A model generated the notes under the pieces. That model made no database searches. It was not told where the DNA came from and saw nothing but the letters and a program-made list of their open reading frames with translations. Both the position numbers and the translations under genes were made by a program. Positions 2,055 to 51,742 of a stretch of 64,000 nucleotides of DNA are shown in pieces (position 1 is the first letter of the stretch; each line of letters starts with the position of its first letter). Origin of the DNA: Escherichia phage ECO4; the sequence record NC_054911.1. One strand, written 5' to 3'.

Positions 2055-2791
2055 TTCCACTCACCTTTATAGTCTTTTTTCACAATATGAGTTTCGCCAG
2101 TATTCCACCAATGATCAACCAAGTAAAAATGACGAGAATATACATGAAGACTTCCAACATTCCATATAATAGAACCTGCTTTATACTGACGAGTTGAATC
2201 GCCTGCATTCAAATCAGATACTAATTTATCTAATACGTATTTTTGCCATGCATAATCATTACGGAATCCGAAGACCACGTCATTTGAGCGCATGCTTACT
2301 ACTGCATTGACTTTCTTATCACGAATCAGGTACTGTACTGTATTAGTACACATGAAATCTGACATACCATCTTTATTGTAGTCAAATTGCATAGATGGAC
2401 GAGTATAAATCATGATACCACGTCGAGAATCAGGATTTTGACCAAGTTCAGCTAAACACATATCATACTGAGCATAGTTATCTTCTGACCAGATAGCCCA
2501 ACCATAATTCGAGTTAATTTCACCTTTAGAAGATGCTACTTGTTGCCAAATCTTCGGTGTTTCACCTGGAATATCTTTAACAAACAAGCTTTTAGATTTA
2601 TACCATTCAAGTTCACGCTGAATGTATTCATCATTAAGAGCGCCAAAAATAAACGGTTCATCTGCTACAAATGATGCGCCAATAATTTCAATAGTTTTAA
2701 CACCAGTTTTATCAACTACGAAATCTTTTTCTTTTAATGCAAGCCCCAAATGAAGACGGATTTCTTCAACTGTCATAGAGTCACTAATCAT
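2051..2791 (-). CDS. 42: dCMP hydroxymethylase
   Basis: 246 aa, MISDSMTVEEIRLHLGLALKEKDF..., matches recalled T4 gp42. Confidence 0.95.
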   Translation of the reverse strand: MISDSMTVEEIRLHLGLALKEKDFVVDKTGVKTIEIIGASFVADEPFIFGALNDEYIQRELEWYKSKSLFVKDIPGETPKIWQQVASSKGEINSNYGWAIWSEDNYAQYDMCLAELGQNPDSRRGIMIYTRPSMQFDYNKDGMSDFMCTNTVQYLIRDKKVNAVVSMRSNDVVFGFRNDYAWQKYVLDKLVSDLNAGDSTRQYKAGSIIWNVGSLHVYSRHFYLVDHWWNTGETHIVKKDYKGEWK

Positions 2792-2944
2792 TTAAACCTC
2801 AATTGATACATTCATATTTAACTTGTAACAGTAATAAACTCCAACCTAAAATAATAGTTGGAATCATAAGAGGAACCGTTACACTATAGTATATACTTAT
2901 TATAATCATCAAGATTAAAAGCAATGCTGCTATAATTTTGCTTT

Positions 2945-3196
2945 TCATTCCTTCTCTCTGATGATAATTACCTGATTTGGCTGCGCAGACTTTTTAGTTT
3001 CACCAGCAATTGACCAAATAAATGTAATAAACCAACCAATAATTGACCAGTTAAACAGTAAAGATGTGAAAAAGATTCCTACTGTCGATTTTGACCCACG
3101 CATCAAGGCGATAAACCATGGAAGCATGTATATAATAATAGCCAACACGCCTGAAACTAAAACCATAAAAATTGAACCTGCTACTAAAGTTTCCAT
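2945..3196 (-). CDS. imm: Imm superinfection immunity membrane protein
   Basis: 83 aa, two hydrophobic helices, position after gene 43 and before 42, RBS GAGGAAA. Confidence 0.85.
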   Translation of the reverse strand: METLVAGSIFMVLVSGVLAIIIYMLPWFIALMRGSKSTVGIFFTSLLFNWSIIGWFITFIWSIAGETKKSAQPNQVIIIREKE

Positions 3197-12251: not shown

Positions 12252-13267
12252 TGTGTTGCCTCTACATATAACTGATTTGCATATTGAATAAGTGCTTCAC
12301 GGTCAGAATCAGTGATGTCTGGAATTGCATTAATGTATTCTTCCATCAACGTCTGAAGAGATTGAACTTCAACTTCTTCACTGTCATCTGACTCGACAGA
12401 GTTATCAATCTTTGACACAACTCGTAATGAATGCACAACTTTTTCTAGTTCAGATTCGAACTTCGTTAGATTTTTGTCTACTTCAGTTACTATAACACGT
12501 ACTGATAGATTTGTAAAATCTTTATAGTCAATTTTTCCTTTAAATGGATAATGAATTCTACGATGCCAGGTAGTGTTGTTTGGAATAAATTCCATTCGTT
12601 CTGTTTCTGTATCAAACATCCAGAACCCACGAGGGTCATTCTCGTCACCTGCAGTTAGTGTCCATGGTGTCCCAATATATCTGACGTTAGCAGCCTCAGA
12701 GATAGTATGGAAGTGACCAGACCACACCTCTTTATAAGTCTTAAGGAAATCAGGTTCAAGACCGTGAGATTTCATTCCTTTATAAAAATAAAATCCATTC
12801 AGTTCCCAGTGACCAACACAAAAAGAAGCAGATGAAGTTTTGATGTGCTCAAGAATTTCACCAGTATTTTCTTCGCACATCCAAGGAATTAAATCAATCA
12901 AACATCCGTCAAAATCTACTGTAGTAGGCTTATCATATACTTTAACATTAGGATATTTAGCCAAAAGCTCAGTAGAGGCATTTGGATGCATTACATTTTT
13001 GTAGTGGAGATCGTGATTTCCTACAATAGTATGTAATGTGATTCCAGCGTCATCAAGCATTTGAACTATTTCACGGGCAAACTCCATAGTTTTATGTGTG
13101 ATTGCTTTTCGCACATCAAAAATATCACCATATTGAATCCATACAGTAATTCCATTTTTCTTAGAATATTCTATCGCTTGCTTAATTCCATCAATTTGAA
13201 TACCGCGAATCCACTCATCATCAGCTTTAACGCCTAAATGCCAATCACCCAAGTTTAGTATTTTCAT
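12248..13267 (-). CDS. 47: recombination nuclease subunit (Mre11/SbcD-like phosphoesterase)
   Basis: 339 aa; phosphoesterase motifs GDWH, GDIFD, GNHD; matches recalled T4 gp47. Confidence 0.93.
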   Translation of the reverse strand: MKILNLGDWHLGVKADDEWIRGIQIDGIKQAIEYSKKNGITVWIQYGDIFDVRKAITHKTMEFAREIVQMLDDAGITLHTIVGNHDLHYKNVMHPNASTELLAKYPNVKVYDKPTTVDFDGCLIDLIPWMCEENTGEILEHIKTSSASFCVGHWELNGFYFYKGMKSHGLEPDFLKTYKEVWSGHFHTISEAANVRYIGTPWTLTAGDENDPRGFWMFDTETERMEFIPNNTTWHRRIHYPFKGKIDYKDFTNLSVRVIVTEVDKNLTKFESELEKVVHSLRVVSKIDNSVESDDSEEVEVQSLQTLMEEYINAIPDITDSDREALIQYANQLYVEATQ

Positions 13268-13868
13268 GGTGTCTTTTCCATCCTAATTTAGCTGCTTTTG
13301 AAACCAGTTCTTTAATTTTTCCTTTTGTCCATTCAGGACCAGGAGGTTCATGACATAACATTTGCTTAACTCCGTTATTATACCATTTTTTACCTTTATT
13401 ATGTGATGAAGCTTTAAATTTATTTGACCTTCCTTTTACATAACCTTCTGGAATATAAGGCAAAAAGGCAGATTTTCCTGTTAATGGATCATGTGAATGT
13501 ATATTTCCTTTACAATTATGAGAACCATATAATGGATGATTTTGTCCTTTATTATCTCTTCCAAATGAACCTTTTGGAGCAGCATATGACATATTAAAGA
13601 ATAATGGATTTTTAACTGCATCATGCAATCGTTGATAATATAACTCGCATTTAATAGCTTCTTCACGCGTATCAAATTCAGCTAAAATGCATGAATCAAA
13701 TAAGTGAGGATTATCTGAAAGCTCTTTATTATAAATTTTCTTATACTTTTTAGATAAAACTGAACCATGATATCCAGCTAAATGCCTATCTAAAGACGTA
13801 GATCCAATATAAAAAGGAGGAAGTTTATCTCCACTATATATTGTTAAATAAGTTATATATTTTTTCAT
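13245..13868 (-). CDS. putative GIY-YIG-like homing endonuclease
   Basis: N-terminus KKYITYLTIYSGDKLPPFYIGSTSLDRH resembles GIY-(10-12 aa)-YIG; basic C-terminal region with NHPLYG/HS repeats resembling Seg-type DNA-binding modules; overlaps gene 47 start. Confidence 0.5.
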   Translation of the reverse strand: MKKYITYLTIYSGDKLPPFYIGSTSLDRHLAGYHGSVLSKKYKKIYNKELSDNPHLFDSCILAEFDTREEAIKCELYYQRLHDAVKNPLFFNMSYAAPKGSFGRDNKGQNHPLYGSHNCKGNIHSHDPLTGKSAFLPYIPEGYVKGRSNKFKASSHNKGKKWYNNGVKQMLCHEPPGPEWTKGKIKELVSKAAKLGWKRHHENTKLG

Positions 13869-18099: not shown

Positions 18100-18128
18100 T
18101 GTAAACTGATTTTTTCAACTTTCTTACT

Positions 18129-18356
18129 TCACCACGTAATTGGCGGATTTAGCTCATCTTTAACTTCTGAATCAATACCTTTCATTCTACGCCATTTATC
18201 AGAGCGAAAAATGTTTTCAACCATATCTTTATGACTTACACCATCAGGAGCTTTACGCTTTCCGAAATAGTCATAATCACGCACTTTTAAGTCTTTACGA
18301 CGATACGTTTTACCCATGGAGTTTAATTTCCTTAGCAACTGAACTAAATACAGCAC
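18129..18356 (-). CDS. hypothetical protein
   Basis: 75 aa basic ORF. Confidence 0.45.
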   Translation of the reverse strand: MLYLVQLLRKLNSMGKTYRRKDLKVRDYDYFGKRKAPDGVSHKDMVENIFRSDKWRRMKGIDSEVKDELNPPITW

Positions 18357-19590: not shown

Positions 19591-20061
19591 TTAATCATGT
19601 TTCCACACCCCATCGGTATTTGACCAAAGTCGCTGATTATCTGATCCTCGCCACAGCTTTTTGGTCGGAAGATTTTTCTCATACTTCCCATCAATAATAA
19701 CATCAACATATTTAAGCATTTCTAGTTGTTTAATATCTTCAAACTTATATCCTGTCCACAACCAAATGCTTTTATTGGGATAAAGATTTTTAACTGTTTG
19801 AACGATGCAATGAATCACGTCTCTGTTATCAGGATAAAGAGGGTCACCTCCGGTTATAGTTAATCCTTCTATATAATCATTATTCAAACATTCAATTAAT
19901 TGTTCTAGTGTTTCACCAGTGAATGGAATACCATTTCTAGCATTCCATGTTGATTTATTATAACACCCTTCGCATTTATGCAAACAACCTGTAACGAAAA
20001 GAACGACCCTGCATCCAGGGCCATTAACAAAGCAGCACGGGTATATTCTGTCATAATTCAT
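19591..20061 (-). CDS. nrdG: anaerobic ribonucleotide reductase activase (radical SAM)
   Basis: MNYDRIYPCCFVNGPGCRVVLFVTGCLHKCEGC cysteine cluster; ATG 20061 overlaps upstream stop (ATGA); track start is TTG artefact. Confidence 0.9.
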   Translation of the reverse strand: MNYDRIYPCCFVNGPGCRVVLFVTGCLHKCEGCYNKSTWNARNGIPFTGETLEQLIECLNNDYIEGLTITGGDPLYPDNRDVIHCIVQTVKNLYPNKSIWLWTGYKFEDIKQLEMLKYVDVIIDGKYEKNLPTKKLWRGSDNQRLWSNTDGVWKHD

Positions 20062-20888
20062 AATAATATCCAATTTTTCCAAGCTTCATCAGTAGAATTA
20101 CAGCGTTTTAGTATAAGATGTCTAGAAACTTTTATGGCATTTGAGCACTTTTTAATTGAATCATATTTAATACCGTCAACTGAAACGGTTTTGCTAATTG
20201 GAGAAATTTTTCCATACATTGGATTTTTTGAACCAACTTGAAGTCCTTTTAAAGCTTTTGAAAGCTTTTGTCTAGATTCCAATGACATGGGAGAATTCTT
20301 TTTACCTTCAATAATTCGCTTGCGATGAAGTTCGCGTTCTTCTTCACTCAAAGAATTGTAATATTTTTTAACACCGTTTGATATAGATAATTTATCTTTC
20401 TCAGACCGCTCTCCAGCTAATTTACTTCTAACATCTTTTCGCTTCATAGCTATGCTTACGGCTTTATTTAAATTTGCTTGATGCTCTGGCGTACGTTTAT
20501 ATTTCTTTAAAGCACGTGAAATAGCTATTTTAGTTTCTTCTGTTCTCTTTTTACCTTTATTTGCTAAACTATTTTTGCGGCGATGTTCAAGTGTCTGTTC
20601 ATAGGCAGTTCCACCTTTTCCACCAGGTTTAATATTATATGTATTTTCTTTTAGACAATACTCTTCGGTTACAAGTTCAGCTTCTTTATCATACATCTGT
20701 TTTTCATTATCAAAAACATGTAAAATTTCTTTATTAAAATTTTTTCTACCATATTTTAATAAAGCGGCACGAATCAATGTTCCTGACCCCATATAACCGT
20801 CATTTATGTTATCGGTGCTATGCGCACCGATATATTCCTTTGAATTAATTATATTTGTTATTTTATAAATTATATAATACCTATGCAT
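20058..20888 (-). CDS. GIY-YIG family homing endonuclease (free-standing)
   Basis: N-terminus YYIIYKITNIINSKEYIGAHS = GIY-(10 aa)-YIG; lysine-rich C-terminal DNA-binding-like region; inserted between nrdD stop and nrdG start with overlaps at both ends. Confidence 0.75.
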   Translation of the reverse strand: MHRYYIIYKITNIINSKEYIGAHSTDNINDGYMGSGTLIRAALLKYGRKNFNKEILHVFDNEKQMYDKEAELVTEEYCLKENTYNIKPGGKGGTAYEQTLEHRRKNSLANKGKKRTEETKIAISRALKKYKRTPEHQANLNKAVSIAMKRKDVRSKLAGERSEKDKLSISNGVKKYYNSLSEEERELHRKRIIEGKKNSPMSLESRQKLSKALKGLQVGSKNPMYGKISPISKTVSVDGIKYDSIKKCSNAIKVSRHLILKRCNSTDEAWKNWILL

Positions 20889-31814: not shown

Positions 31815-32828
31815 TCATTTATAATAACTTCGATGGTTTTCAAGATAAACCCTCTCAAGGAAGTCATCCCAGAAACCCATGTCTACTTTTTGCTGCATAC
31901 CGTTCTTAGAAGCTTCAATGGATGCTGCTTCTACTTGATCGACCACATCTTCCAAAAACTCTTGAACAGTTTTAAATGGATGTTTACCCAACTTCACGTC
32001 GAGAATAAATGGAGCGTCTTGAAGTGGATAGACTAAGTCACCAGTTTTGTAAATTTCCAATAGTTGGAGTCCACCACGGCAAGCATGACTCAGAGCTTTC
32101 CAGTCAATGCCCTCATTCGCTTCAGCCTTACGAGCACGTTCGCCGTATTCAGCATCAAGTTTATTCAAAGACTGCTTAAGCTCAATAAGAGAAAGCGTTG
32201 TTTGATATTTACGACCCAACACAGTGTAGAACGTTTGTGGACCTGTTTTCTCATGATTATGGAATACCCATTCACAGAATTCGTTCTCTGGAAGACGATG
32301 CTTAATATCTTCAACTTTAGTTCGACGCTGCTTAATGGAACCGTCTTCTTGGTAATCAACCCATTGCTCAGGGATTTGATTAACTACTTTCAACACATCA
32401 CGTAATGCGGCCAAACGAGAACCCTTAACACCGTATTTAGAAGCTTGCTTGCGAACATATCCTAAGTAGGATTTCATGTTGGTCGTATAAAAACGAGAAC
32501 GGTTGTCTTGAATAAACTTCCATACATCAGGCAAATCAGATTTAACTACTAGTTCCGGTGGAGTGTGGAGCATATCCAATGCTACAGTTTCACCATCTGC
32601 TGCTAATTTAAAGAAATACTTAAGACTGTATAGTTCATGGTCAATATCATCTTTAGTGTTTTTAGATGATGTGTTGTTAGTGTTTTTACTCATATGCTCT
32701 TTAACATTTCCAATAAGAATATCGCGAGCAGGAGGAACAAAGATTTCTTTAAAATCTACATCAGATTCTGGAGTAGAAGTTCCATAAAGATGACTACCAA
32801 AATAGCTTTTCATTACTGTTTTCATCAT
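31815..32828 (-). CDS. putative Pol-beta-superfamily nucleotidyltransferase-fold protein
   Basis: N-terminal GSHLYGTSTPESDVD (G-S-x10-D-x-D) followed by DIDHE acidic motif. Confidence 0.5.
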   Translation of the reverse strand: MMKTVMKSYFGSHLYGTSTPESDVDFKEIFVPPARDILIGNVKEHMSKNTNNTSSKNTKDDIDHELYSLKYFFKLAADGETVALDMLHTPPELVVKSDLPDVWKFIQDNRSRFYTTNMKSYLGYVRKQASKYGVKGSRLAALRDVLKVVNQIPEQWVDYQEDGSIKQRRTKVEDIKHRLPENEFCEWVFHNHEKTGPQTFYTVLGRKYQTTLSLIELKQSLNKLDAEYGERARKAEANEGIDWKALSHACRGGLQLLEIYKTGDLVYPLQDAPFILDVKLGKHPFKTVQEFLEDVVDQVEAASIEASKNGMQQKVDMGFWDDFLERVYLENHRSYYK

Positions 32829-33286
32829 TCAGCCTTATATTCAATAACAGGACATACTTTAGCTTTACGAGCTTTTAAAAATTCAACGATAATCGATTTC
32901 TTGGGTTGAATAGGAGGTAAACCTTTATACGCTCTATCAATATTTTCTACGTGTAAAGCATAATCCTTTTTCCATTTATAATCTTTATATTTTTCACGCA
33001 AATGTGCAGGAATAACAAATGAACAGATAATAAGTAAAACAACCAAAAGCGCAAGTATAAATGCCGATGGAAGAAGAGTCCATAAACTACCAAAAATAAG
33101 CCAACGTTGTAAACTTTCTGCACAGATAATTGTTAGCCCTACGAGTATAGCACATCCAAAAATAGAAACGAAAAATGTAGGAATGGCAATAGACCAAAAA
33201 TATGCGCATAGTGTCTTAGGTCGTTGCCATTCATCGTTAAACAATTTGAATAATTTATAGTGCCAAGAGTTTTCATTAATAATCAT
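32825..33286 (-). CDS. membrane protein
   Basis: 153 aa with multiple hydrophobic segments. Confidence 0.5.
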   Translation of the reverse strand: MIINENSWHYKLFKLFNDEWQRPKTLCAYFWSIAIPTFFVSIFGCAILVGLTIICAESLQRWLIFGSLWTLLPSAFILALLVVLLIICSFVIPAHLREKYKDYKWKKDYALHVENIDRAYKGLPPIQPKKSIIVEFLKARKAKVCPVIEYKAE

Positions 33287-33288
33287 AA

Positions 33289-33540
33289 TTATCCTTTCAT
33301 TGAAGGCGTAACGGTTGTTAAATACTTAATCATAGCTTCAGCTTCTGATTTTGACAATGAAATTTCTCCATTGTTTTGACGAATAGAAATAAAATCCGGA
33401 TGACGGTCACCACCAGCTTTTAAAACACACATATAAGTATCAGTTTCGCCTTCAATATTTGAAATGATTGAAGCAGTTCCACATGAATGCGGTTTTTGAT
33501 AAATCAATACAGCTTTTCTTCCGCCATTTGGACTGCTCAT
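33289..33540 (-). CDS. hypothetical protein
   Basis: 83 aa ORF; overlaps upstream ORF by 89 nt (possible frame break). Confidence 0.4.
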   Translation of the reverse strand: MSSPNGGRKAVLIYQKPHSCGTASIISNIEGETDTYMCVLKAGGDRHPDFISIRQNNGEISLSKSEAEAMIKYLTTVTPSMKG

Positions 33541-33811
33541 AGGCTTTTAATACATCAAACAAATCAGTTCTTTTATCAATAGCTAAAATGTTATTTTCAT
33601 CTTCAATGTTAAATCCTTCGGATACTTCATAAAGTGTCACCCATAAATCGCCAATATCAATAACAGCGTTCACTTTTCCATGACTTTCAAGAGCATGACA
33701 AATTTTCTTGATTTCGTCATAACTCATTTTAATAATATCATCTCCTTGAATAAGAAAGATGTCATTTTTAAATTCAACACGAATTAAACCACTTCCACTT
33801 GAAATAAACAT
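33452..33811 (-). CDS. hypothetical protein
   Basis: 119 aa, RBS GAGGAAA; C-terminal 25 aa look non-coding. Confidence 0.45.
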   Translation of the reverse strand: MFISSGSGLIRVEFKNDIFLIQGDDIIKMSYDEIKKICHALESHGKVNAVIDIGDLWVTLYEVSEGFNIEDENNILAIDKRTDLFDVLKAYEQSKWRKKSCIDLSKTAFMWNCFNHFKY

Positions 33812-34032
33812 ATTTCCTCACTTTGAAATCATAGTTGGAATGACAGAATCAAGATAAGTCTTTAGCGCAATAGCTTCGTCTTTGGTAAATGTGACAATAT
33901 GTGATCGAAAATCGTCAATTTGGCGAATAGTTAAGACATCTCCCTCTTCATAACATTTTGATACATTTAAAAGAGTTTCATCATTCTGATTGCAAGCGTT
34001 AGTAATAATAGCATTGCAATTTTTGAGCCATT

Positions 34033-34371
34033 TTAAACTATGTTTTCTTTCATTAGAATAATAAAATATTTAATCTTAGCTATAAAACTATCCCAATGGA
34101 TAACTGATAAACACATTGACTCGCTTTTAATATTAAATCCTGGGCATGAAGAATAAAAATGAATTTTATGCTCATCATTAATGCTTACAATTTTATCAGT
34201 GTAAGCATATTCAATTTGAGTTAAACGAACAATTTCACTAGGTGTAAAATACAGCATATCGTCTTCTTGCGTCAAACGATACATATTATTTACTTTTTCT
34301 ATAGCCAATTCACCAAAAAGTGGACTAACTTCTAATACTAATCGTTTCATATTAATCCTTTTTATTGGCAC
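34033..34371 (-). CDS. hypothetical protein (possible frame break near 3' end)
   Basis: 112 aa ORF; a start-less 83-codon open frame continues downstream to 33818. Confidence 0.45.
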   Translation of the reverse strand: MPIKRINMKRLVLEVSPLFGELAIEKVNNMYRLTQEDDMLYFTPSEIVRLTQIEYAYTDKIVSINDEHKIHFYSSCPGFNIKSESMCLSVIHWDSFIAKIKYFIILMKENIV

Positions 34372-34630
34372 GAATTTGTTCTAAAATTTTAGAGTATTCC
34401 TTTGTATCAGATTTACGTACAATCGATACACTATACGGCATACTATCGGTGTCTTTTATAAAGCGTTCCAAATGACATTCTAATAAAATTTCTGGATTAT
34501 AAATCGTGTACATCAAATTACCTGTTGCTCCACGATATTGACAGATTTCTACTGATTGAACACCATTCCATAATTTTGTTAAGACCAAATCACCTACTTC
34601 TAATTTAGGAAAGCCCATGTTATTCACCAA
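34352..34630 (-). CDS. hypothetical protein
   Basis: 92 aa ORF. Confidence 0.45.
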   Translation of the reverse strand: MVNNMGFPKLEVGDLVLTKLWNGVQSVEICQYRGATGNLMYTIYNPEILLECHLERFIKDTDSMPYSVSIVRKSDTKEYSKILEQIRANKKD

Positions 34631-34805
34631 TTAAAGTTTCAATATAAGAATCAAGATTTACTTTAGCTTCTTCCATAAGAGTTTTGTATTTAATCTTGTT
34701 GGCATGTCCGGAGAAAGCTGATTCATCAATAATTGTTGATGTATGAACAGCTTTACTATACGTCTCAATTAATTCTCTTAATTTAAAAGCCTGCTCACTT
34801 GTCAT
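34620..34805 (-). CDS. hypothetical protein
   Basis: 61 aa ORF. Confidence 0.4.
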   Translation of the reverse strand: MTSEQAFKLRELIETYSKAVHTSTIIDESAFSGHANKIKYKTLMEEAKVNLDSYIETLIGE

Positions 34806-34937
34806 TACATACTCCTCTGAATCATATCAATAATGTTGTTCACCAGATTATAAGTAAACATTGGGTAATTATATTGAATCATCACATACACAACAAACAA
34901 AACTTTCATTCTCTTCTCCTTGGCAGTTGACAAGATT

Positions 34938-34967
34938 ACTATACCATAACCTTGTCAACTTGTAAAC
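34938..34967 (-). promoter_or_regulatory. early promoter, GTTTAC-18nt-TATAGT
   Basis: Upstream of small ORFs near 34900. Confidence 0.6.
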
Positions 34968-34969
34968 CA

Positions 34970-35143
34970 TTAAATGACGTTTTCGATAAAATTCTGAAGC
35001 TTTGTATGAGCATCAACCATGATTTTCATTTCTTCTTTGGCAAAAGCTGTGCCTCTTTCACGAGAAGAACATTCATAGTCAGAAACTGCATTAGCATATT
35101 CTTCAATTAGCTTCATTAAAAACATCTGCTTTTCAGTTTTCAT
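34970..35143 (-). CDS. small hypothetical protein (57 aa)
   Basis: ATG with RBS GGTGGAA; below ORF-track size cutoff. Confidence 0.35.
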   Translation of the reverse strand: MKTEKQMFLMKLIEEYANAVSDYECSSRERGTAFAKEEMKIMVDAHTKLQNFIENVI

Positions 35144-35327
35144 TATTCCACCTAATCATTTCAAGATATTGAACTAACTTAGCTTTAGATTTATCCAAAT
35201 CCTTTTTAGCTGTTGCTATACCTTCGTATGAATATCCTTCGCAATGCTCAACTGCTAATTGATATGAATCTATTTCAACATCGCGTGCTAATTTAATGAT
35301 TTTTTCAAACTGTTCGTGTGTTAGCAT
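35133..35327 (-). CDS. hypothetical protein
   Basis: 64 aa ORF. Confidence 0.45.
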   Translation of the reverse strand: MLTHEQFEKIIKLARDVEIDSYQLAVEHCEGYSYEGIATAKKDLDKSKAKLVQYLEMIRWNNEN

Positions 35328-35329
35328 AC

Positions 35330-35569
35330 TTAAACTCTCGTATTATGATCGATAATTTCATCAAGAAACATATCTAACGCTTCTAAAGCATTATCAACTT
35401 TAGCTTCAAAGTCTTTAATGCCTTTATTTGCAATGCCTGACGAAAACCAAGCAAAGTCACTAAGTTCCTCATCTGCTTTACGAATTAAAGCTACCAATTC
35501 CTTAATTTTATCCGCTTGTTCGATACTAATCATTATTCCACCACATATGAAAGAGAGAATATTGCACAT
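35330..35569 (-). CDS. hypothetical protein
   Basis: 79 aa ORF. Confidence 0.45.
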
Positions 35570-35721
35570 GCCATGTGAGTTGCAACTTCATCACACATAT
35601 TATAACGTTTCTTAAGAAGTTCTACAAGTTCTTCACTGGTAACTTCATCCATGTCGACGAAAAAATCACCATTAATGATGACGTAGATATTTCCTTCTTG
35701 ATTAAGTGCTTCAATTTTCAT
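35533..35721 (-). CDS. hypothetical protein
   Basis: 62 aa from MKIEALNQ with RBS GAGGAGAA downstream of early promoter; track ORF over-extended through the promoter. Confidence 0.5.
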
Positions 35722-35781: not shown

Positions 35782-35810
35782 GTAAAATGAAAAAGTCTCC
35801 CGAAGGAGAC
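35782..35810 (-). terminator. intrinsic terminator (UUCG-loop hairpin plus U-tract)
   Basis: GUCUCC-UUCG-GGAGAC followed by UUUUUCAUUUU. Confidence 0.65.
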
Positions 35811-47608: not shown

Positions 47609-48084
47609 TTATTTGATTTGTTTAGCAGACCAAATGCGGTCTTTAATAATTTTTTGGATGTCTTCAACATACTCTAGGTCATGAGCATGTGGGTTATCTT
47701 TAAAGCTATGAGCACGAGCTAGCTTTTGGCCTTCAGTTTTGATTACTAAAAGCTCTTTAAGGATAGCTTCATATTTGGAGATAATTCCTTTAACGATATT
47801 TTTTTTTCTTGTGCGACTTTAGGATCTGCTTTAGGAGCAGGTTTACCCGAAGCCTTTGCAAAAGCAGCGCCAGTAGCAACTAAACTTTTCCAGGCCATAC
47901 TAACTGCATTTCCCGTAAATCCTTCCGCTTTCATGTCGCGTGCGAACTGAAATCGCGATTCATCAGAAGCATCTTTGTAAGAATATTTACCCGCTGCAAT
48001 GGCTGCTTTTGCGACAGCTTGAATTTCGGTGCTAGATGCTTCATTTAACACCGCTTCATTTAAAAATTGAGTATATGATTTCAT
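47609..48084 (-). CDS. internal-protein-like gene with capsid-targeting N-terminus, broken by a frameshift at an A9 tract
   Basis: N-terminus MKSYTQFLNEA; annotated frame stops at 47746 but a start-less protein-like frame continues to a stop at 47609 next to the terminator; frames meet at the T9/A9 run 47799-47807; late promoter TATAAATA upstream. Confidence 0.5.

Positions 48085-51063: not shown

Positions 51064-51742
<679 letters not shown>

Follow-up and report, generated by a model that had tools for sequence, protein, structure and literature searches.

Two tandem mobD.1-like genes of phage ECO4 are each split between two reading frames

Escherichia phage ECO4 is a Tequatrovirus, of which we analysed a 64-kb stretch of sequence record NC_054911.1 (hereafter the window, whose coordinates are used throughout). 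Two genes on the minus strand, here called A and B, sit between a Phage_tudor gene and nrdC.11, as do the y05I loci of related phages. Gene A is the orthologue of T4 mobD.1, at whose position relatives carry a 534-nt CDS labelled 'similar to T4 MobD.1' (534-543 nt across relatives), and gene B is its tandem paralogue, present in T6 as a 522-nt CDS labelled 'similar to mobD.1; RB32ORF097c'. In ECO4, each of the two genes is divided between two frames (Table 1).

Table 1. Positions of the genes, fragments and single-base changes described in the text (window coordinates unless a contig is named)
Feature	Position	Strand	Description
Gene A, T4 mobD.1 orthologue, y05I family	33818..34350	minus	Split into two frames; 177 aa with one T restored
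Break site A	34063..34066	minus	Coding-strand run of four T (four A on the plus strand); five T in 21 aligned relatives
Gene A N-fragment ORF	34033..34350	minus	105 aa: 96 native and 9 out-of-frame (IILMKENIV); ASZ77226 / YP_010068336
Gene A C-domain frame	33818..34069	minus	Open; without ATG, GTG or TTG ahead of the domain; stop at 33818-33820
Gene B, tandem paralogue of gene A	33289..33811	minus	173 aa with one C removed
Break site B	33530..33531	minus	Coding-strand CC (GG on the plus strand); TCA to TCCA; single C in 18 aligned relatives
Gene B N-fragment ORF	33452..33811	minus	119 aa: 94 native and 25 out-of-frame; ASZ77225 / YP_010068335
Gene B C-fragment ORF	33289..33540	minus	83 aa; ATG start; no Shine-Dalgarno upstream (TTAAAAGCCTATG)
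Break in 97-aa conserved gene (gp55.5 in PP01 annotation)	18145 (feature 18111-18317)		Private G to GG
Run in 157-aa gene next to tRNA cluster	47799-47807		Nine T on the plus strand; gene frameshifted
Deletion in 57B-like gene	51078 (feature 51064-51513)		Private, 1 nt; three C to two C on the plus strand; protein end ADDLK-stop becomes QMI-stop
Split gene B in Logan contigs	L005 2703-3225; L006 1961-2483; L007 269-791		Three A to four A; one SRA accession series

The first-pass annotation of this DNA had described for gene A an ORF (34371..34033) followed by a start-less frame that stays open down to 33818 and overlaps the former at 34036-34069, and for gene B two ORFs (33811..33452 and 33540..33289) that overlap by 89 nt. 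We recovered both layouts at these same positions; the start-less frame opens at 34069 and closes with the stop at 33818-33820. The true start of gene A is likely the ATG at 34350, which has AAGGA 6 nt upstream, rather than the GTG at 34371. Alignment with relatives places a 1-nt deletion after Phe96 in gene A, shifting the downstream frame by -1, and a 1-nt insertion after Ser94 in gene B, shifting it by +1. Since the residues past each indel are out of frame, the odd tails of the two ORFs are explained; the W/C/F/H-rich end that had been remarked upon in gene B is real and corresponds to its 25 residues after Ser94. A resemblance between 'KWRKKSC' in the gene B tail and 'KWLKNC' in gene A was considered as possible homology and rejected, the alignment of the repaired proteins identifying it as an out-of-frame chance similarity.

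Upstream of gene A, the minus strand from 34352 to 35600 holds the Phage_tudor gene (PF24144), 92 aa long as listed from a TTG at 34630 and 88 aa in its homologues, together with small ORFs of 57-79 aa. The corresponding genes in related contigs are four tandem DUF7438 paralogues (mobD.2a to mobD.5), so that this variable region includes a further tandem family.

Both breaks fall in the linker between the same two domains

Each of the four unrepaired pieces matches exactly one complete Pfam domain. The N-fragments of genes A and B match PF24449 at residues 4-97 (E 5.4e-39, 133.3 bits) and 2-95 (E 1.8e-34, 118.8 bits), respectively, against a gathering cut-off of 24.9. The C-domain frame of gene A covers profile positions 1-69 of 69 of PF24448 (E 4.1e-21, 75.5 bits), and the C-fragment of gene B matches the same domain at residues 12-81 (E 8e-22, 77.8 bits), against a cut-off of 27. 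A one-base repair gives in both cases a full-length two-domain protein, with PF24449 and PF24448 detected at E 8.7e-40 and 9.4e-21 in A and at E 2.8e-34 and 2.6e-23 in B, phrog_1502 being also matched by both. The discontinuities are thus not chance arrangements of frames, since there is one domain per piece and the repair restores the whole protein; the two domains of each gene sit in different frames because of the 1-nt deletion in A and the 1-nt insertion in B.

The repaired proteins are paralogues, with 27% identity over 176 aa (E 3e-9). Both breaks lie in the linker between PF24449 and PF24448, only three aligned codons apart: at Phe96/Tyr97 in A and at Ser94 in B, the latter aligned with Ser99 of A. 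That A and B are paralogues broken at a nearly identical interdomain position had escaped the first-pass annotation.

The y05I family is small: at 50% identity, it accounts for 12 clusters in a set of 1.84 billion representative proteins, and the representative libraries already hold N-only and C-only fragments of it. Our searches found no published function or defence link for the family and no NCBIfam match; in the literature, there was nothing on y05I, and MobD.1 was named in one review only, as a flanking gene.

Structure models of the intact proteins (mean pLDDT 80 and 77) suggest a resemblance to nucleic-acid binders of the Pur-alpha/Whirly/PC4 type, in which two beta-beta-beta-beta-alpha repeats would form the N domain and a third repeat the C domain. 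In the model, the break position lies where helix 81-95 ends, ahead of a linker of low confidence, and a truncation there would take away the repeat responsible for pairing in Pur-alpha. The family has no sequence similarity to solved structures, and Foldseek searches with the models returned nothing significant.

As they stand, the two ORFs code for no more than the N domain with a brief out-of-frame extension, 105 aa in total for A and 119 aa for B. The C-domain frame of gene A is probably not translatable on its own because no start codon precedes the domain, and the internal ATG of gene B at 33540 has no Shine-Dalgarno sequence, whereas AAGGA or GAGGA lies 5-6 nt ahead of the true starts nearby. 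On account of these two features, the C domains appear not to be made, or hardly made. A maintained domain fission with separate translation of the C domain, considered as a further possibility, was rejected on the same grounds of a missing start codon (A) and a missing ribosome-binding site (B). Note that the exact 83-aa C-fragment protein of gene B is absent from a collection of 15 billion proteins. Both genes display two features expected of a frameshift pseudogene, namely a frame-disrupting indel relative to intact orthologues and a downstream part without translation signals of its own.

The two indels are private to ECO4 and, if genuine, probably recent

A BLAST search with 1.5 kb of the locus matches 492 phage records at 90-97.7% identity, and almost all of them belong to Tequatrovirus. 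Two intact genes cover the interval in phages ACG-C40, EPIMRB01, JY01, ESh24, ESh28, BCPEco_001, vB_Eco_Some, T6 and PST. We aligned ECO4 with a panel of 23 relatives drawn from isolates, IMG/VR, JGI metagenomes and Logan contigs, representing 20 independent loci. In 20 of the 20 independent relatives, gene A is a single ORF of 177-180 aa and gene B one of 173 aa, over the whole gene or the portion of it covered by the locus. Separate short ORFs with conserved stops in relatives, the observation that the first-pass annotation had named as incompatible with its proposal, were looked for in this alignment and were absent from all 20. Gene B is also intact in all surveyed loci of IMG/VR (3) and of the JGI metagenomes (6).

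Over 1,501 bp, the two indels, 536 bp apart, are the sole private differences of ECO4 with respect to the 23 relatives, with zero private substitutions. For the deletion at site A, a 70-nt query matches 325 phage records, and the best hits listed differ by the gap alone, none being identical. For the insertion at site B, a 70-nt query matches 141 records, none identical, with T6, PST and IME340 differing by that base alone. The segments coding for the C domains of A and B have undergone no further decay and retain full-length Pfam matches, so that the frameshift events, if genuine, are probably recent.

The best account of these data is a single-nucleotide frameshift in each of genes A and B, private to ECO4, with a run of five T losing one T in A and an extra C being gained in B. 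This is an ordinary phenomenon, either recent gene inactivation or sequencing error, and it involves no new mechanism. The first-pass annotation had offered this pair of alternatives, errors in homopolymer length or the recent inactivation of accessory genes, and as a pair it holds; its homopolymer component applies to site A and not to site B, where a single base became two. We favor genuine, very recent and effectively neutral mutations that inactivated dispensable genes at a locus with fast turnover, which is the most likely reading and one to which we give about an even chance.

The competing account is one of indel errors in sequencing or assembly: the genes of the phage itself would be intact, at 177 and 173 aa, and the split ORFs would be artefacts of annotation. 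It is possible but falls clearly short of even. The local data lend themselves to it in several respects: the closest relatives are identical to ECO4 over 70 nt save the indel, two private indels stand against zero private substitutions in 1.5 kb, the coding sequence downstream is undecayed, site A is a homopolymer length change, and the proximity of the two sites is what a locally poor assembly could yield. The exact ECO4 proteins were found only in NCBI-derived sources, with no independent ECO4 assembly among the collections searched, and the papers naming ECO4 report no sequencing platform or method.

Private indels across the window spare genes with assigned function, save the end of 57B

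The first-pass annotation had connected the locus to a long run at 47.8 kb as part of a possible pattern, and a wider pattern exists: the window contains five private frame-changing indels, that run included (Table 1). Comparison of the window with 110 JY01 proteins (19,228 codons) revealed internal frame breaks in four genes only, at 18145, 33531 (gene B), 34067 (gene A) and 47799. The four genes are small and all annotated as hypothetical in JY01; no frame break was observed in the large genes, among them those for the polymerase, the clamp loader and the baseplate. The fifth indel, the deletion at 51078, alters only the last five residues of 57B. The insertion at 18145 is common to none of the 448 phage records matched by a 71-nt query, the change at 47799 is private among 169 matching records and the deletion at 51078 is common to none of 494, so that all five indels are private among the 141-494 records matching each of them. 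The nine T at 47799 form the sole homopolymer longer than 7 in the window, and closest relatives are two bases shorter over a 76-nt query.

Two minus-strand ORFs are absent from JY01, one of 207 aa between gene 47 and alpha-gt (13245-13868) and one of 276 aa between nrdG and nrdD (20058-20888). Their N termini look GIY-YIG-like, and they may be putative free-standing homing endonucleases.

The distribution of the five indels bears on the error account in both directions. Their number in 64 kb greatly exceeds the frequency of broken gene B elsewhere, as an indel-prone platform would give, and two of them, at site A and at 47799, are homopolymer length changes. A rate of about one indel per 13 kb would be plausible for a consensus obtained with an older flow-based or long-read platform. 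Random errors, however, would be expected mostly in genes with assigned function, which make up 58% of the compared codons, and none of the five lies there once the final five codons of 57B are set aside; random placement would give this outcome with a probability of 0.028 when the four internal breaks are counted and of about 0.013 with the fifth indel included. In addition, three of the five occur at non-homopolymer or short-run positions (G1 to G2, C1 to C2 and C3 to C2), away from any run of four or more, which is atypical of consensus homopolymer errors. Long runs elsewhere are intact: of those comparable with JY01 (268 of length 5, 47 of length 6 and 2 of length 7), four in all are different, and the one of these four that was checked, at 35790, is common to another phage. 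There is thus no general homopolymer problem in the ECO4 window, which is moreover free of ambiguous bases.

The ratio of private substitutions to private indels over 25 kb was also considered, and dropped. The share of frameshifts in T4 is naturally high, and for this reason the ratio is uninformative, the small panel giving an upper bound only.

Other phages carry broken or rearranged versions of the two genes

The genes of this family are demonstrably broken in other phages, which speaks for real mutation. The 119-aa fragment of ECO4 clusters with a 119-aa protein from three Logan runs (SRR22355887, SRR22355949 and SRR22355841), in which gene B is split by the insertion of an A into a run of three, adjacent to and different from the ECO4 insertion, at 1-3 nt from it. 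Gene A is intact in two of the corresponding contigs (L005 and L006), and the third (L007) covers its 3' part only. The same cluster includes an 87-aa form of gene B from phage JEP6, with an out-of-frame tail starting at about codon 85. In Logan contig SRR14695910, the single y05I gene is broken at codon 65, inside the N domain; this frameshifted single-gene locus occupies positions 2501-3039 of the contig (L025). We considered a single ancestral frameshift allele for ECO4 and the Logan trio, both of which have AAATGG at the site, and rejected it since the intact genes of T6, PST and IME340 also have AAATGG; as judged from the inserted bases, C in ECO4 and A in the Logan contigs, the two insertions are probably independent.

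Rearranged versions are found as well. Six Logan contigs carry a hybrid y05I gene (P0058) made of the N part of A and the C part of B, an arrangement that fits unequal crossover between the tandem paralogues. Others are a y05I fusion in phage TadeuszReichstein (P0059) and a replacement of the C domain (P0062). In RB3 (L017), the mobD endonuclease stands in place of both gene B and a 153-aa membrane ORF, and in the T6 record (L016) that ORF is stated to replace mobD ('replaces mobD'). Since RB3 has mobD where ECO4 has gene B and the membrane ORF, the broken genes lie at an insertion point of a homing endonuclease. ECO4 itself is without a mobD HNH endonuclease in the region 32825-33811. From the independent broken and rearranged alleles in other phages, we conclude that the locus is dispensable and turns over.

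The breakage of both paralogues at the same linker is a suggestive coincidence, and it raises a further possibility, that the truncation is genuine and selected. ECO4 would then keep the N domains alone since losing the C-terminal repeat is advantageous, for example as an escape from a host defence that senses this repeat, or because the lost partner of an A-B pair makes the repeat of the other harmful. We consider this explanation unlikely. The two hits lie between the Pfam domains and leave both N domains complete, and the rough post hoc chance for two of five random hits to fall in the A/B pair within 3 codons is <0.01; the three Logan runs with their independent insertion next to the ECO4 gene B site and the break of JEP6 point in the same direction, and the predicted C domain is similar to single half-domains of the PUR/PC4 type working as dimers. 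The coincidence was, however, spotted after the fact, and the other gene B alleles were found via clustering with the ECO4 fragment, which is an ascertainment bias. One further broken allele is cut inside the N domain, gene A is intact in the Logan phage, and the out-of-frame tails and absent start signals look accidental. Broken alleles are also rare, a handful against the intact 173-aa forms that make up ~600 of the distinct gene B sequences, and the family has no function or defence link found in our searches.

In its most specific form, ECO4 would have shed the third, pairing-type PUR-like repeat from both y05I/MobD.1 paralogues with the N domains kept, which we regard as quite improbable. 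We are just as doubtful that the C repeat would be a liability, as a defence trigger, or that pairing through it would make the loss of one favor the loss of the other. Were selection nevertheless at work, the independent insertion that an uncultured phage has 1-3 nt from this site would identify it as a cut point used repeatedly.

Recoding is an improbable explanation of the split genes

A last explanation is programmed recoding, in which ribosomes would change frame to produce the full-length proteins, by -1 at U UUU in gene A and by +1 in gene B. If tRNA-Phe slipped back by one base on UAU UUU A in gene A, the ancestral KYFYYSNERK would be restored exactly, as read from the aligned frames. 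Against this, the two-frame layout occurs in no aligned relative, and no X XXY YYZ heptamer is present, gene A having U UUU A only. In gene B, the +1 shift would have to occur at UCC AAA, a sequence that is not among the known shifty sites, and the two genes require opposite shifts. The downstream RNA has an MFE of -16.4 kcal/mol with a z of -1.35 versus shuffles, i.e. no better than shuffled sequence. We therefore give programmed recoding next to no credence, and a -1 slip restoring the gene A protein would be adventitious leakage only. Transcriptional slippage was likewise rejected, the run of four T being too short.

Discussion

The main value of these observations lies in annotation: four short 'hypothetical proteins' or ORFs of ECO4 are fragments of two known two-domain genes. 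With at least five frame-changing indels in the 64-kb window of the ECO4 record, such fragments could spread in databases as separate families. If the mutations are real, as in the recent inactivation that we favor, both y05I paralogues are dispensable for the propagation of a T4-like phage, and ECO4 would offer a naturally occurring form with the N domain alone, of use in the study of a family with a predicted Pur-alpha/Whirly-like fold.

Genes A and B have the domain order and length of the T4 MobD.1/y05I family (PF24449 T4_y05I_N followed by PF24448 T4_y05I_C; PHROG 1502). In this family, the two domains lie in one continuous ORF of about 173-185 aa, an arrangement found in neither ECO4 gene as it stands: unlike their y05I relatives, A and B are each cut by a 1-nt indel at the interdomain linker. 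The likeness to the Pur-alpha/Whirly/MRP/PC4 fold is one of the predicted model only.

The overlapping frames, and the U-rich overlap in gene A, recall programmed -1 frameshifting as in dnaX or the phage tail chaperone G/GT. Unlike these, ECO4 has no conserved heptamer, no stimulatory structure and no layout conserved in relatives. Homopolymer errors in deposited phage genomes offer a second parallel, site A being a private change from five T to four in an otherwise undecayed gene; they differ in that site B is not a homopolymer and that the five indels avoid genes with assigned function, save for the end of 57B.

The frameshift pseudogenes and gene turnover of T-even variable regions share with the ECO4 locus private single-base indels in small, variably present genes, and other genomes carry different broken, fused or replaced versions of A and B. 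An analogous natural inactivation is reported in a review of T4 mobile elements, in which I-TevIII is active in RB3 only (PMC2988022). Compared with the usual T-even frameshift pseudogenes, ECO4 is distinguished by having both tandem paralogues hit at a homologous position, with no secondary decay visible.
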